Shown here: positions 13,104 to 54,854 of the stretch, piece by piece
Position numbering within the stretch: the first letter of the stretch is position 1
Layout of the letters: each line of letters starts with the position of its first letter
Source: a virus
Direction: 5' to 3' (one strand)
DNA length: 64,000 nucleotides
IMG/VR virus record: IMGVR_UViG_3300032294_001228
Span: 54,685-118,684 of that record
The notes under the pieces: generated by a model
What the model was told of the DNA's origin: nothing
The model's input: only the letters and a program-made list of their open reading frames with translations
The model's database searches: none
Translations under genes and position numbers: made by a program

Positions 13104-13946
13104 ATGCAAATCACAGCAGGACATATCAAAGCACTATTTCCCAAATACAAATATCCAGAAGATCTAGCTGAAGCCCTAACAGAATCTTTTGACAAGTATG
13201 ATATCAATACTGTCAATCGTGCGGCAGGTTTCCTAGCACAATGCGGACATGAAAGTGCTGGATTTACTATTTTACAAGAAAACTTAAACTATAGTGCCGA
13301 CGGTTTGAACAAGATATTTAAGAAATACTTTCCAACAGTAGCAGATGCTACACCTTATGCTCGCAATCCACAAAAGATCGCTAACAAGGTCTACGGTGGA
13401 CGTATGGGCAACGGTCCTGAGTCCAGTGGTGATGGCTACAAGTTCCGTGGTCGCGGTGCTATCCAGTTAACTGGTCGTGACAACTACACACAGTTTGCCA
13501 AAGCTGTAGGTCTTACATTAGATGAAGCTGTAGCAGACTTAGAAACACTTGACGGTGCTATCGAGTCAGCTTGCTGGTTCTGGAAGAAGAACGGCTTAAA
13601 TGCTATCTGTGACAAAGATGATCTTGTTCTAATGACTAAGCGTATCAACGGTGGCACTATCGGTCTTGAAGATCGTAAGAAACACTACGAACATGCTAAA
13701 CACGTATTAGGTGGCGATCATGTAGCCGAATCACATAGTGCGCCGGCCGCTACAGAATATGTAACAGTACGTTTAGGAAGTAACAACGACACAGTTAAAG
13801 CAGTGCAACGAGCATTAGGATTAACAGCAGATGGTGCATTTGGTCCTGGCACAGAACGTGCAGTCAAAGCCTGGCAAACTAAAAATGGGCTAGCCGCTGA
13901 CGGTATCGTTGGTCCTGCTACTATTAAAAAGATGCTAGGCGAATAA
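13104..13946 (+). CDS. Endolysin: GH19 catalytic domain plus C-terminal peptidoglycan-binding domain
   Basis: FLAQCGHES, ENLNYS, YKFRGRGAIQLTGRDNY, INGGTIGLEDR; C-terminal ADGAFGPGTERAVKAWQ...ADGIVGPAT. Confidence 0.92.
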   Translation: MQITAGHIKALFPKYKYPEDLAEALTESFDKYDINTVNRAAGFLAQCGHESAGFTILQENLNYSADGLNKIFKKYFPTVADATPYARNPQKIANKVYGGRMGNGPESSGDGYKFRGRGAIQLTGRDNYTQFAKAVGLTLDEAVADLETLDGAIESACWFWKKNGLNAICDKDDLVLMTKRINGGTIGLEDRKKHYEHAKHVLGGDHVAESHSAPAATEYVTVRLGSNNDTVKAVQRALGLTADGAFGPGTERAVKAWQTKNGLAADGIVGPATIKKMLGE

Positions 13947-13947
13947 C

Positions 13948-14394
13948 ATGTGGTTATTACACTTCTTACCTGACAGTTTCTTACATACTATCATTAATAT
14001 AGTTCTATTTGCAGGATTAGGACTTACAGTTATAGGGTTCTTTTTGATAGGATTCATTCCTGGAGCACGTAACTACAAAACATTGGTACAAATTTTAGGT
14101 GTTGTTCTGTTAGTAGCAGGCATCTACTGGAAAGGTGGTTACGGTGTTGAGATGGAATGGCGTGCCCGTGTAGCAGAAGTTGAAAAGAAAGTAGCTATCG
14201 CAGAAGCCAAAGCTAAACAAGCTAACACTAAGGTACAAGAAAAAATCGTAACTAAGATCGTTAAGATCAAAGAAAAAGCTGAAATAGCCAAAGAAGGCAT
14301 ACGTAGAAATAAAGAAAAAATCAATGCAGAATGCAAACTCAGCGACGAAGCGGTCGCCGCTTATAATCAAAGTATCATCAAGGAGAAGAAATAA
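13948..14394 (+). CDS. Putative i-spanin (Rz-like)
   Basis: N-terminal TM segments, then a coiled-coil periplasmic region with a C-terminal Cys; follows the endolysin. Confidence 0.65.
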   Translation: MWLLHFLPDSFLHTIINIVLFAGLGLTVIGFFLIGFIPGARNYKTLVQILGVVLLVAGIYWKGGYGVEMEWRARVAEVEKKVAIAEAKAKQANTKVQEKIVTKIVKIKEKAEIAKEGIRRNKEKINAECKLSDEAVAAYNQSIIKEKK

Positions 14395-14660
14395 TGCGTA
14401 ACTTACTCCTAGCCGGTTTATTGTTATTAACAGGTTGTGCTACATCGGTGCCGGTAACTATGAGTTTCCCACAGGCACCAGAAGCACTAGCTAAACCCTG
14501 CGATCTATTACTACCATTAGATCCCGCTAAACGTGAATTATCAGATCTATTAGAAAATACCACAGACAACTATGCCAAGGCCAAAGAATGTCATGCTAAG
14601 AGTAAGGCTTGGTTAGAATGGTACGAAACACAACGTAAAATATTTGAGGAAGTCAAATGA
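14394..14660 (+). CDS. Putative o-spanin lipoprotein (Rz1-like)
   Basis: Lipobox LLTGC; Pro-rich FPQAPEALAKPC; C...C pair. Confidence 0.7.
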   Translation: MRNLLLAGLLLLTGCATSVPVTMSFPQAPEALAKPCDLLLPLDPAKRELSDLLENTTDNYAKAKECHAKSKAWLEWYETQRKIFEEVK

Positions 14661-15076
14661 AAAAATTAGCTATTGCTTTAACACTAGTCTTACTAACAGG
14701 TTGTGCGACTATACAACAGAGCACACTTTATCGTGCTTGGAATATGCCTAAGTTTGACAACAATGAATATAGCCAGATCAACACAATCCGTACAGTGGCT
14801 AACTTAGGTGCGGCTAAGTGTGGCACACCCGAAGTAGTGCCTGTGGTAGATAGCCTATTCTACAAGTCAGTAGAATTTAAAAATTATTCATCTAGTATTC
14901 CACACAATGAAGAAGTGATAAAGATGAGTGGTGAACTAGCAGAAATCATCAAAGGACTAAACACGAGATATCATGAGAAGGAACCTGTAAGTCCTTCATA
15001 TTGTACTCTCAAATTCGGCACTATTGAGAAAAACGCAGTAACAATACAAAATGTTATAGGAGCAAAACCACGATGA
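14657..15076 (+). CDS. Second lipoprotein in the lysis cassette
   Basis: MKK-hydrophobic-LLTGC lipobox. Confidence 0.7.
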   Translation: MKKLAIALTLVLLTGCATIQQSTLYRAWNMPKFDNNEYSQINTIRTVANLGAAKCGTPEVVPVVDSLFYKSVEFKNYSSSIPHNEEVIKMSGELAEIIKGLNTRYHEKEPVSPSYCTLKFGTIEKNAVTIQNVIGAKPR

Positions 15077-15267
15077 GTACCGTATCACAAGCACAAGAAT
15101 TAGATGCACAATATAAAGCTGGTAATTTATCAGCTAGTGAATATAAAGAACTATTAGAAGATCTTAAACATACTGCTGCCGTAAATGAAGCCGCAGGTGA
15201 TTTGGCAAAATTAACACAGATACATGAAGTATTAGATGGATTAAAGTCTGCCGCTGGCTTAATTTAA
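15073..15267 (+). CDS. Hypothetical protein
   Basis: 64-aa helical ORF coupled by an ATGA overlap. Confidence 0.6.
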   Translation: MSTVSQAQELDAQYKAGNLSASEYKELLEDLKHTAAVNEAAGDLAKLTQIHEVLDGLKSAAGLI

Positions 15268-15314
15268 CCAAATGCAATAAATACTATTATAATAAAGCAC
15301 TAGGAGCATAGACA

Positions 15315-15605
15315 ATGACATCAGCAGCAGAACAAAAAACAGCAGATTGGATGACCACTAAGTGGCGCCCATTGATGGCTGTAACATACATGGCTACAAT
15401 TTGGTTTGACTTCATCGTAGGTCCAATCATTTTTAACATATTACAATATCTTAATCCAGGTCAAGCTGTATCAAGCTGGACTCCTTTAACACTCCAAGGC
15501 GGTGGTTTATATCATTTGAGTATGGGTGCTATCTTAGGTATAGCGGCATTTACACGTGGTAAAGAAAAGATCGCGGAGATTGAAGCGGGAAAACCTCAGG
15601 GGTAG
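15315..15605 (+). CDS. Putative holin (GTA 3TM-holin-like), short form
   Basis: KWRPLMAVTY...TM...LYHLSMGAILGIAAFTRGKEK; AGGAG RBS; late promoter; lysis context. Confidence 0.7.
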   Translation: MTSAAEQKTADWMTTKWRPLMAVTYMATIWFDFIVGPIIFNILQYLNPGQAVSSWTPLTLQGGGLYHLSMGAILGIAAFTRGKEKIAEIEAGKPQG

Positions 15606-15630
15606 GAACAGCCCCGGACGTAAGTGTTCC
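15587..15630 (+). promoter_or_regulatory. -1 programmed ribosomal frameshift signal (slippery heptamer plus H-type pseudoknot)
   Basis: In-frame G GGA AAA (15587-15593); 5-nt spacer; stem1 GGGGU 15599-15603 / GCCCC 15611-15615; stem2 GGAACA 15605-15610 / UGUUCC 15625-15630. Confidence 0.8.
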
Positions 15631-15826
15631 ACAACAACCTCAATGGTTAAGTCAACCTGCACCAGAGAATAATGTTCCTGAGGCAGCCCCAGAGGTAATT
15701 CAAGAGTTTGAAGCGACTGAAATCGCAGATACTCAAGAGCTTGTGGAAATGCCTACAGAACCAGAGATTGCAGAAACTCCTGAAGCAGTAGATCCAAATC
15801 GCCCAGCGAGACGTAAGAAAAAATAA
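15593..15826 (+). CDS. -1 frame C-terminal extension of the holin (77 aa; long form about 170 aa)
   Basis: Open -1 frame TSGVGTAPDVSVPQQPQWLSQPAPENNVPEAAPEVIQEFEATEIADTQELVEMPTEPEIAETPEAVDPNRPARRKKK*; phage-typical codons, no RBS-linked start at its 5' end. Confidence 0.75.
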   Translation, partial: TSGVGTAPDVSVPQQPQWLSQPAPENNVPEAAPEVIQEFEATEIADTQELVEMPTEPEIAETPEAVDPNRPARRKKK

Positions 15827-15839
15827 TCTAGTTTAGAAC

Positions 15840-15868
15840 TAGACATTAAATAAAAGGTAAGCTATAAT
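15840..15868 (+). promoter_or_regulatory. sigma70 promoter with nested late element
   Basis: TAGACA-17-TATAAT; TAAATA at 15847-15852. Confidence 0.6.
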
Positions 15869-15890
15869 AACATATAGTTTACCTTTTTTT
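15852..15890 (+). terminator. Terminator of the lysis cassette
   Basis: AAAAGGTAAGCTATA / TATAGTTTACCTTTT stem (one G-U) plus a T run. Confidence 0.7.
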
Positions 15891-15905
15891 ATCAATGGAG
15901 TTATA

Positions 15906-16619
15906 ATGGAATACGTCGAAGAGCAGGGCCCTTTATTAGAAAGTCTGGTTTATCTTAATCAAGCCAAAGTTATCGTAGAAGTTGGTGTAGCAGAAGCCAA
16001 GTCAACAGATTGGTTATGCCGTGGTGCCAAACTACGCAATGGATTCGTCTATGGATATGATCTATGGGACACACATGGTTTGATGAATCAATTTCAACAT
16101 TGGTCCAGCAAAGAAAAATGTGAAGCGTATCTACAATCAAAAGGTCACACAAATTTTGAATTAACCAAAATCAATTCAAGAACTCCAGAATTTGTAGAAC
16201 TAATTAAAACTAAACATCCTGTAATTGATTTGGCATTTATCGACGGATGCCATAGCTATGATGGTATTAAAAATGACTTTGATGCTATCTATCCACAACT
16301 AAGTGAGTGTGGTGTTATCGTATTCCATGATACATTACGTATCGATGGTTGCAGAGAATTCATGATTGATCTACGCACCAAGTTCTGGGATGGCACGTAT
16401 GATCTTATCACTTTTCCTTTTGGTAGCATGTTCTACAGCGATGGTAATGTAGTAGATCGCCGTACAGGGATCAGTGTATTGGCTAAACGTAGCTTTGCTA
16501 CATTAGACTTACCAATCGACGAACAGTGTAACTTAGATGAACACTACCAAGAAATCTACGTTAAAGAAGAAGAGTGGTACGAAGCAGAACTTAAACGTGC
16601 CGCTAAAATGAAAAAATAA
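15906..16619 (+). CDS. Class I SAM methyltransferase (Methyltransf_24-like)
   Basis: VIVEVGVAEAKS, IDLAFIDGCHSY, GVIVFHD. Confidence 0.85.
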   Translation: MEYVEEQGPLLESLVYLNQAKVIVEVGVAEAKSTDWLCRGAKLRNGFVYGYDLWDTHGLMNQFQHWSSKEKCEAYLQSKGHTNFELTKINSRTPEFVELIKTKHPVIDLAFIDGCHSYDGIKNDFDAIYPQLSECGVIVFHDTLRIDGCREFMIDLRTKFWDGTYDLITFPFGSMFYSDGNVVDRRTGISVLAKRSFATLDLPIDEQCNLDEHYQEIYVKEEEWYEAELKRAAKMKK

Positions 16620-16659
16620 AGAATAGACAAGATAAACATTTTCTTGTAATATAAACAAT

Positions 16660-17517
16660 ATGGCTGATGCATATGAAACGTTAGGTGTGCCCAGAGGGGC
16701 ATCTGAAGACGAGATCAAAAAAGCATATCGAAAACTAGCGGCAAAACATCACCCAGATCGTGGTGGTGATACTGCTAAGTTCCAAGAGATACAGACTGCT
16801 TACGATACTCTTTCAGATCCTCACAAACGTGCCGCACACGATAATCCAAGTCCGTTTAGTCAATTTGACAACGGCAATGGCACTCATTTTGAATTTCATT
16901 TTGGACATGACAATATCAATGACATATTCAGTCAGGTATTCCGTCAACATGGCCATCCATTTGGCGGACCAAACCCGTTCAATCAACGTCAGCCTAGACG
17001 CAACAAAGACCTAAGGGTACAATTACATATAAATCTTTCCGACACTTTAACGACACAGCGTAAAACCATAGCTGTGCAAACTACTAAAGGTGATCGCTAC
17101 AGTGTAGATGTTGAAATACCTCGAGGGATTAGTAACGGGACTACTATCAAGTATAGCGGTATGGGCGATAACATGTTTGATTCCTTGACAAGAGGAGATT
17201 TATATGTTATAATAGTTGTAAACAATGATACTTCGTTTGACATTCAAGGCGTAAATCTAATATACACAGCAACTATTGACAGTATTGATGCTATGTTAGG
17301 AACAGAAAAAATTATACGTGGTATTGACGGTAAAGAATATTTAGTGAAAATACCGCAGGGATGTCAACCAGATACAAGGTTTGGTTTAGGCGGACAGGGG
17401 CTATTTCAAATGAATGCCACTGTGAGAGGTGATATAATAGTTGTTGTTAACATTGTAACTCCTTCACTGTCCCAAGAACAATTAAACATACTTAGAACCA
17501 TTAGACCTATCAACTAA
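16660..17517 (+). CDS. dnaJ: DnaJ/CbpA-type co-chaperone (J domain plus C-terminal domain, no Zn finger)
   Basis: [19 protein letters not shown] (HPD motif), G/F-rich linker, RGDLYV. Confidence 0.92.
17185..17213 (+). promoter_or_regulatory. Perfect sigma70 promoter inside dnaJ
   Basis: TTGACA-17 nt-TATAAT with an extended -10 TG. Confidence 0.7.
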
Positions 17518-54137: not shown

Positions 54138-54854
54138 ATGAAAATATTAGTAAGTGGATGTTCTTTTACTTCAGGTTTGAAATTTGAACTAGAAAAAAAT
54201 GACCCAAAAATATGGCCAAATTTGCTGTCGACTGCGTTAAATGCAGAAGTAGTTAATGTTGGTGTTTCTGGATACGACAACTCAGGTATTTTTTTAAATG
54301 CCGTTAGTGAGTTTACTGCTACTAACTATGATTTAATTTTAATACAGATAACTGCATTAAACAGAGTAGTAGTGTCACCTACGTTTGAAGGTTCGTATGT
54401 AATTACTCGATATAACAGTTCTTCCATTTTCTATAATATGGACGACGAAGAATATCAAAAATTTTACAAATCATTTACAAAGTTAAATAATGATTTTGAA
54501 CATTGGAAAAGACTAATACTTATTATTAAATCTCTGCAAAATTTTATCAATCAAGGATATAATATTAAAATTATAAATGGATTGATGGAATGGGATCAGT
54601 CATTTTTTACCACAGACGATTCTAATTTTGCTAAAAATATTTTAGATTTTCACATGTTGCCCGATAAGTTAATTCAAAAAGGATTAGATATTATTAATCT
54701 TGATAAAAAACTAATAAATTTAAATCATTGGATAAATCCATTTGATTCAATGAGAAAAATGCAAATAGATACCGTATTAAAATCTGATCAGCACCCAGGT
54801 CCTAAGACTCATAAACTAGTGGCTGATTTAATATTATCAAAATTAAATTTTTAA
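54138..54854 (+). CDS. SGNH-hydrolase-like protein (AT-rich)
   Basis: VSGCSFT (GxS), VNVGVSG..N, DQHPG (DxH). Confidence 0.65.
   Translation: MKILVSGCSFTSGLKFELEKNDPKIWPNLLSTALNAEVVNVGVSGYDNSGIFLNAVSEFTATNYDLILIQITALNRVVVSPTFEGSYVITRYNSSSIFYNMDDEEYQKFYKSFTKLNNDFEHWKRLILIIKSLQNFINQGYNIKIINGLMEWDQSFFTTDDSNFAKNILDFHMLPDKLIQKGLDIINLDKKLINLNHWINPFDSMRKMQIDTVLKSDQHPGPKTHKLVADLILSKLNF

Follow-up and report, generated by a model that had tools for sequence, protein, structure and literature searches.

A putative holin gene of an uncultured giant freshwater phage with a likely programmed -1 ribosomal frameshift and pseudoknot

The DNA analysed here, referred to as the window, is a 64,000-nucleotide (nt) stretch of a viral sequence, positions 54,685 to 118,684 of the IMG/VR record IMGVR_UViG_3300032294_001228. 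It is part of a 118,684-base-pair (bp) contig for which CheckV gives a completeness of 33%; because related contigs reach 200–300 kb and the runs containing window DNA are freshwater/lake metagenomes, the contig is one piece of an uncultured giant phage from fresh water. At the locus in question, a 0-frame open reading frame (ORF) encoding a holin-like membrane protein of 96 residues is followed by an extension of 77 residues in the -1 frame. The junction between the two frames carries a slippery heptamer, G_GGA_AAA, a short spacer and a compact H-type pseudoknot (Table 1). An earlier note, made from the sequence of the window by itself, had proposed that these elements give rise to two holin isoforms. 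Comparison with homologous loci makes it very likely that programmed -1 ribosomal frameshifting, at a site backed by a pseudoknot, yields a 96-residue and a 170-residue form of a membrane lysis protein.

A set of 141 related loci was classified, comprising 61 from IMG/VR and 80 from metagenome contigs (JGI/ENA), some of which are one contig present in both collections. Loci were counted as slip-site loci if the heptamer is in phase and the -1 frame extends for 40 codons or more. By this definition there are 55 complete slip-site loci, 4 with the heptamer only, 17 one-frame long genes, 14 intermediate, 41 short and 10 truncated. Three of the heptamer-only loci are on contigs that end too early, and the fourth, L084, has a closed -1 frame. 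All 59 heptamer-bearing loci encode proteins at least 77% identical to that of the window. A blastn search of GenBank phages with window positions 15000–16000 gave zero matches, and a tblastn search of the same phages found distant jumbo-phage homologues only (27–36% identity), none of which has a frameshift. A tree of the 255-nt head, the region shared by the two forms, is too poorly resolved for gains and losses to be counted, but its starred branches force at least three changes of the slip-site label, and the slip-site state is present in both of its weakly resolved major subclades.

With the window counted in, there are 60 junctions, of which 45 are distinct in sequence. An in-phase X_XXY_YYZ heptamer is found in the window and in all 45, and it is always G_GGA_AAR (GGGAAAA in 39, GGGAAAG in 6). 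The codon that supplies the first G is GCG in 28 junctions, TCG in 14, CCG in 2 and ACG in 1. Thus it has the form NCG throughout, despite a residue that varies between A, S, P and T. The 0-frame stop follows the heptamer immediately in 36 of the 45, after one codon in 2 and after three codons in 7, which include the window. The start of the open -1 frame lies only 1–11 codons before the heptamer. The in-phase heptamer, with its stop three codons further on, was correctly read in the earlier note, and the alignment of homologues shows that heptamer, spacer, covarying second stem and open -1 frame are all kept. On inspection of the junctions, no conserved upstream Shine–Dalgarno stimulator of the dnaX type was seen.

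The frame break might be an assembly or sequencing indel in a gene that is truly a single ORF of 170 residues. The window does come from a metagenome contig, and some close relatives have one-frame long genes. In addition, if 31 letters are required on each side, the site is bridged by the probable source run only, X1; that run alone spans the whole stretch, and contigs of X2 and X4 overlap across the site without having 31 letters on both sides. An artefact is nonetheless hardly credible, because 45 distinct sequences, drawn from two collections and many samples, all show this break at an in-phase G_GGA_AAR. Contigs of X1, X2, X4 and X5, four runs from four studies, have no insertion or deletion listed from 15329 to 15871, and the one-frame relatives differ by having another junction sequence, not by one base. 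The outcomes that the earlier note had named as contrary to its proposal did not arise: the contigs list no indel across the site, and homologues do carry it. One contig of X2, an independent freshwater run, joins position 15568 to position 15840 and probably comes from a relative whose tail is absent or has been replaced.

The -1 frame has 0 stops in the 3,687 codons of the 45 distinct tails; the other two frames have 276 and 228 in 3,642. As the earlier note had described, the window tail is acidic and rich in Pro and Glu (D+E 15, K+R 6 and P 12 among 77 residues), stays open for its 77 codons and ends right before a terminator-like hairpin. It has no match in Pfam or PHROG. An alignment of 30 tails shows eight invariant residues, G3, P16, W18, D67, R70, P71, R73 and R74. 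The layout consists of a G..P.W motif near the junction, a hypervariable linker rich in Pro, Glu, Ala and Val, and a D-P-x-R-P-x-R-R end, which in the window is D-P-N-R-P-x-R-R-K-K. Slip-site tails can be aligned with the in-frame tails of five one-frame loci (L006, L024, L080, L085 and L088), which have both motifs in common with them, and the distant one-frame homologues P0010 and P0011 have the same R-P-L-R-R type of end. A second type of tail end, F-G-K...P...D-P-I-L or P-E-L, is found in other branches (P0018, P0020, L048, L051 and L008). Judged by these alignments, a long disordered tail with a short conserved C-terminal motif seems to be a trait of the family.

Are these tails the dying remnants of a long ancestral gene that was truncated by a frameshift, with only the 96-residue protein being made? 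One-frame long relatives exist, and the tail evolves fast, with minimum numbers of changes by codon position of 118/104/145 vs 53/28/143 for the head. There is also the nonsense codon of L084 (1773–1800), where the heptamer is intact, a TAA lies five codons into the -1 frame and the first pseudoknot stem, S1, is weakened. The L084 tail is still open past this TAA, the D-P-N-R-P-A-R-R-K-K-K end included; either the locus has recently lost its long form or the sequence contains an error. Decay is very improbable against the absence of stops in the tail frame of 45 sequences, the conserved tail motifs, a heptamer kept at synonymous positions, compensatory changes in the second stem, S2, and a slip-site state found in both head subclades. 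In a further cluster representative of 150 residues, P0007, whose head is 81% identical, the remaining third frame of the tail DNA is read (...GERENNGVRNSPRSKCSS...); this variant may be genuine, or the gene may have been called on a contig that has an indel at the slip site.

The tail might also be made as a separate protein by reinitiation, or reached by transcriptional rather than ribosomal slippage. The 0-frame stop abuts the start of the -1 ORF, and there is a short run of A within the heptamer. Both are exceedingly unlikely. As read from the DNA, the tail has no start codon for separate synthesis: none of the 45 -1 ORFs has an ATG, GTG or TTG within 17 codons downstream of the heptamer (the first is 17–80 codons after it, and 4 have none at all), and the window has no -1-frame ORF of at least 30 residues with a start of its own. 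A separate product would also miss the conserved G..P.W motif. The A run is only 3–4 bases long, being AAAG in 6 of 45, and known polymerase-slippage runs are longer than this. Both routes leave unexplained the covarying pseudoknot 4–5 nt downstream.

The pseudoknot is small, with stems of 5 and 6 bp and loops of 1 and 9 nt, and its stems, loops and spacer agree with those drawn in the earlier note. Its marked GC richness also stood up, the 34-nt element having 62% G+C vs 39% for the window, a value reached by 1.1% of 34-nt windows. Covariation was assessed in an ungapped alignment (A2) of 42 distinct 60-nt junctions. In S2, three pairs show compensatory changes: 26–49 is GC in 32 and AU in 10, 28–47 is AU in 30 and GC in 12, and 29–46 is CG in 30, AU in 8, GC in 1 and unpaired in 3. 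The pair 27–48 has one-sided change (AU 37, GU 5), and 25–50 is GC in 41 and unpaired in 1. Paired cells make up 79–82% of the total vs 29–60% when the partners are slid, and the covariation score was reached by 0 of 500 shuffles. The residues encoded by the two S2 arms vary as well, e.g. GT...SVP vs ED...SSS. The three core G–C pairs of S1 are invariant and hence uninformative, and its closing pair is U.G, U–A or C–G. Loop L3 has two residues, A42 and A43, that never vary, even though column 42 falls at the third position of a codon in the tail frame. A custom pseudoknot finder arrives at this fold as well; 1 of 200 shuffles does equally well for the window, and the range is 1–4 of 200. A search of Rfam found nothing near any gathering score.

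The same pseudoknot is found in some relatives that lack the frame break. Seven distinct one-frame relatives retain it (0–3 of 200 shuffles as good), and its S2 covaries there too, GGUGCUU being paired with AAGCAUC in L008 and with AAGCGCC in L013. Situated 3–6 nt upstream of the pseudoknot in these relatives is an in-phase slip motif with an immediate -1-frame stop: G_GGU_UUU then UAA in L006, L008 and L013, and U_UUU then UAG in L024, L080, L085 and L088. According to the accessible part of PMC4066793, U_UUU is the third most shift-prone tetramer in Escherichia coli with a pseudoknot, and R_RRU_UUY heptamers are shift-prone. Among one-frame relatives with unrelated tails, five of six score 0 for the pseudoknot, and the sixth, L030, has a weak one. 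An IMG/VR search with the tails of the one-frame relatives returned the queries themselves or nothing. It is little short of an even chance, on a small sample of 3 + 4 distinct sequences, that in these relatives, as in dnaX, normal decoding yields the long form and a slip the short one.

Retention of the pseudoknot in one-frame relatives means that it is not tied to G_GGA_AAR alone, and this favours another purpose for it, such as pausing for membrane insertion or mRNA stability or processing, with slipping incidental and rare. Such a role, taken as the main one, is improbable. The one-frame relatives that retain the pseudoknot have it 3–6 nt behind an in-phase slip motif that meets a -1 stop at once, an arrangement suited to frameshifting of the opposite polarity, and those with unrelated tails mostly have no pseudoknot. 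The conservation of the heptamer at synonymous sites is not accounted for either.

At the protein level, the 96-residue product matches the PHROG 3427 holin family (expect value, E, 1.9e-5) and the Pfam family PF11351, GTA_holin_3TM (24.6 bits, E 3.8e-5). An AlphaFold2 model shows a helical hairpin, helices 4–46 and 58–90, with a mean pLDDT (predicted local distance difference test score) of 91.1. The two hydrophobic segments, at about 19–47 and 63–80, compare with the three transmembrane helices of PF11351, and some relatives have N-terminal extensions. A profile search of the Protein Data Bank found no relative. Positive residues flank both helices, and the topology is therefore inferred to be N-in/C-in, with a cytoplasmic tail. 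Besides Met1 there is a conserved Met13, and inspection of the window sequence showed no Shine–Dalgarno-like sequence before it. The wider family has 923 representatives at E <= 0.001; PF11351 is matched at that threshold by 46 of 58 sampled representatives, the best at 3.6e-9. The accessible part of bioRxiv 10.1101/790493 reports experimental holin activity for a PF11351 member, TeaA of phage ICP1, and within the family it is for TeaA only that hole formation, collapse of the proton-motive force and triggering by energy poison are shown there.

These matches and the gene neighbourhood uphold the earlier designation as holin-like at the family level, although the PF11351 match of the window protein itself is borderline. 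It falls 0.2 bits under the curated gathering cut-off of 24.8 and covers model positions 57–117 of 123, the last two of three helices. The frameshift could be real and the protein something other than a holin: an antiholin, a superinfection or lysis-inhibition factor, or a virion-associated protein. The homologue in Pseudomonas phage PA5oct (L003:2501–2827; 27% identity, 108 residues, no tail) is annotated 'structural protein, ESI-MS/MS' (electrospray ionization tandem mass spectrometry), which is odd for a holin. Homologues in Phosso and Atu_ph07 are near ligase and tail-fibre genes, with no lysis gene annotated alongside. A non-holin identity is nevertheless rather unlikely, given the PF11351 matches of 46 of 58 family representatives, the PHROG holin match, the tested holin TeaA within PF11351 and a linkage to endolysin that persists down to 30–33% endolysin identity. 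Furthermore, the window protein is the only small ORF product with multiple transmembrane segments among ORFs of at least 30 residues in 13500–17500, the interval that was screened within the contig. The protein is thus inferred from sequence to be a two-helix PF11351-family member and the putative holin of its lysis cassette.

Table 1. Features of the putative lysis cassette and recoding site (window coordinates)
Feature	Positions	Strand	Remarks
Endolysin, first cassette gene	13104-13946	+	Glycoside-hydrolase/chitinase-like domain and C-terminal peptidoglycan-binding-like part; PHROG 181, E 6e-81
Probable i-spanin	13948-14394	+	PHROG 312 Rz-like spanin, E 2.5e-4; syntenic in relatives
Probable o-spanin lipoprotein	14394-14660	+	LLLLTGC lipobox; PHROG 456 Rz-like spanin, E 4e-7
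Second lipoprotein	14657-15076	+	LVLLTGC lipobox; weak PHROG 1119 Cor-like match (signal peptide only, E 0.0014); conserved in cassette
Acidic soluble helical protein, 64 residues	15073-15267	+	Weak SHOCT-like match, E 0.028
ATAAATA motif	15277-15283	+	Upstream of start codon
Ribosome-binding site AGGAG	15302-15306	+	8 nt 5' of ATG
0-frame ORF, 96 residues (short form)	15315-15605	+	Ends ...IEAGKPQG; PF11351 (GTA_holin_3TM) family
Slippery heptamer G_GGA_AAA	15587-15593	+	15587 is third base of GCG, hence in 0-frame phase
-1-frame extension, 77 residues	15593-15826	+	Pro/Glu-rich; TSGVGTAPDV...RPARRKKK; TAA 15824-15826
Spacer, 5 nt	15594-15598	+	4-5 nt in relatives
H-type pseudoknot	15599-15630	+	Covariation, slid controls, shuffles
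Stem S1	15599-15603 GGGGT with 15611-15615 GCCCC	+	4 G-C pairs and one U.G
0-frame stop TAG	15603-15605	+	Within pseudoknot; three codons, CCT CAG GGG, between heptamer and TAG
Loop L1	15604	+	Single A
Stem S2	15605-15610 GGAACA with 15625-15630 TGTTCC	+	
Loop L3	15616-15624	+	9 nt
Terminator-like hairpin and U-run	15847-15891	+	Closes transcription unit; -21.9 kcal/mol, z -6.3, 0/200 shuffles as good

The gene is encoded with an endolysin and probable spanins in a late lysis cassette. Among the 61 IMG/VR loci, 33 have an endolysin homologue within the fetched flank of 3 kb, directly adjacent in distant ones. Among slip-site loci, 41 of the 44 distinct sequences upstream of the gene have the ATAAATA motif, 34–46 nt before the start codon; we take it to be one base short of the T4-type late-promoter consensus. 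A sequence like the hairpin that closes the transcription unit is also found 3' of the gene in L006 and L024, and a consensus terminator scan left the window hairpin unflagged. The 64-residue protein is encoded upstream in the 42 distinct slip-site loci that have enough flank and was undetected in L008 and L013, whose tails end in the different motif. It is a candidate for a small cytoplasmic regulator. Complex prediction between this protein and the tail gave no support and is no evidence either way.

Downstream of the holin gene, most relatives have a gene for a DnaJ-like protein (16660–17517 in the window; J domain and C-terminal domains by sequence). A Methyltransf_24 gene (15906–16619) lies between the two and looks like a variable insertion, because it is present in only some relatives (e.g. 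L005–L007, L014, L019 and L023–L027).

Several observations weigh against programmed frameshifting at this site. The support for it comes from the comparison of DNA, and all runs with window DNA are DNA metagenomes kept as contigs. Within the accessible part of PMC4066793, G_GGA_AAG ranks in the top three -1 motifs for efficiency in E. coli, given a stimulator, and the introduction calls G_GGA_AAA inefficient in that organism; it is this second motif that 39 of the 45 junctions use. The spacer of 4–5 nt is at the short end of the usual 5–8 nt given in the same text. Single-sequence folding energy is within chance (z -0.25, -1.7 and -1.1), nested folding being unable to score a pseudoknot; because it is unremarkable, the comparative evidence is what places the signal beyond chance. 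The tail evolves fast with weak codon-position bias, and L084 has a TAA five codons into its tail. On the protein side there are the PF11351 score just under the cut-off, the coverage of only two model helices and the PA5oct annotation. Finally, two forms are not obligatory in the family, as 41 loci are short only and 17 have one-frame long genes.

Set against these points is what comparison of the loci shows: a slip site, a pseudoknot with covarying pairs, a -1 ORF that has been kept open and a tail homologous to tails encoded in frame. The two products proposed in the earlier note, of 96 and about 170 residues, are accordingly supported at the level of homologous sequences, and a programmed frameshift remains the preferred reading. 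Under it, most ribosomes would translate the 0 frame to the TAG and release a two-helix membrane hairpin with a short charged C-terminus. Some would pause at the pseudoknot 5 nt downstream, with tRNA-Gly on GGA and tRNA-Lys on AAA, slip back by one base (GGA to GGG, AAA to AAA) and read 77 further codons. The resulting form of 170 residues would have the same membrane hairpin, fused to a disordered, acidic, proline-rich cytoplasmic tail with the conserved D-P-N-R-P-x-R-R-K-K end. The ratio of short to long form would be set by the mRNA signal. Perhaps this ratio tunes the timing of lysis, as in the fixed-ratio holin/antiholin lysis clock that the earlier note had offered as a possibility, or perhaps the tail motif lets a partner act on a subset of the holin molecules. 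Neither form would obviously be a pure inhibitor, because the short-only and the one-frame long relatives show each form as the sole encoded product.

A broader scheme, which is speculative though possible, treats the locus as a reversible recoding switch. One conserved pseudoknot would serve two polarities: the short form as default, with a slip at G_GGA_AAR giving the long form, and, in close relatives, the long form as default, with a slip at G_GGU_UUU or U_UUU giving the short form. Selection would then favour having the two forms in a fixed proportion, which would be a lysis timer hard-wired at translation, and the tail motif would be a handle by which a regulator or the membrane controls the tailed holin molecules.

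Known routes to holin isoforms and antiholins are dual start codons and separate genes, and lysis timing largely sets phage fitness. If true, a frameshift-set ratio of tail-less to tailed holin would be a third way to tune the lysis clock, and conserved frameshifting in phages would no longer be confined to tail chaperones and capsid proteins. At about 45 nt the signal is compact, and natural variants are plentiful, including both polarities, several versions of S2 and one-frame forms. There are also implications for annotation: gene callers give only the 96-residue ORF, so that some 230 nt go without annotation in dozens of giant-phage genomes. Full-text literature searches turned up no description of frameshifting within a holin gene; subscription journals and supplements are outside this coverage and an earlier report is possible. 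In its accessible part, PMC9671017 places predicted frameshifts in genes 'near predicted holins' only, and the word 'holin' is absent from the accessible part of PMC10885494.

Among known systems, the lambda G/GT genes have the same heptamer class (G_GGA_AAG/A) and a slip at the 3' end of a short ORF. They too have a short 0-frame product and a C-terminal extension in the -1 frame, with the ratio fixed by the mRNA. The G/GT tail-assembly-chaperone frameshift and its counterparts in tailed phages were reportedly described by Xu, Hendrix and Duda in 2004. The window gene differs in encoding what appears to be a membrane lysis protein, of another family and module, and in the covarying H-type pseudoknot after the site; to our knowledge, the lambda site has no comparably strong structure. 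Membership in the tail-chaperone group was considered and rejected, since the matches are to holin families and the neighbours are lysis genes.

Escherichia coli dnaX (tau/gamma) is similar in that a long and a short form with a shared N-terminal part come from one gene. In dnaX, a -1 slip meets a stop at once. The polarity of the window gene is the opposite, and its likeness to dnaX is greater in the one-frame relatives (L006, L008 and L013, and possibly L024 and L080/85/88), where the long form would be the default and a -1 slip would likewise meet a stop at once. The stimulators also differ, a pseudoknot in the window gene and an upstream Shine–Dalgarno sequence plus a hairpin in dnaX.

The orfA/orfAB genes of the IS3 family have a bacterial-type -1 site consisting of a heptamer or tetramer with a downstream pseudoknot, and G_GGA_AAG/A, U_UUU and R_RRU_UUY were all measured as shift-prone with a pseudoknot, according to the accessible part of PMC4066793. 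They differ in being transposase genes with another product logic, and the window pseudoknot is smaller. The RcGTA holin is a GTA_holin_3TM holin of PF11351. Among PF11351 holins, ICP1 TeaA resembles the window protein in its membrane-core family and in linkage to endolysin; in the accessible part of its description, the partner ArrA is a separate gene and no frameshift is described, and the window protein has two helices, not three. Of the cases compared in which frameshifting is tied to the expression of a lysis function, neither gives two C-terminal holin isoforms. The dual-start holin/antiholin pairs S105/S107 of lambda and S68/S71 of phage 21 differ by 2–3 N-terminal residues through alternative initiation. 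As in the proposed window pair, a single lysis gene is the source of two membrane proteins, whose ratio is set and whose difference lies at a cytoplasmic end. The forms of the window protein would instead differ by a C-terminal tail of 77 residues, acquired through recoding.

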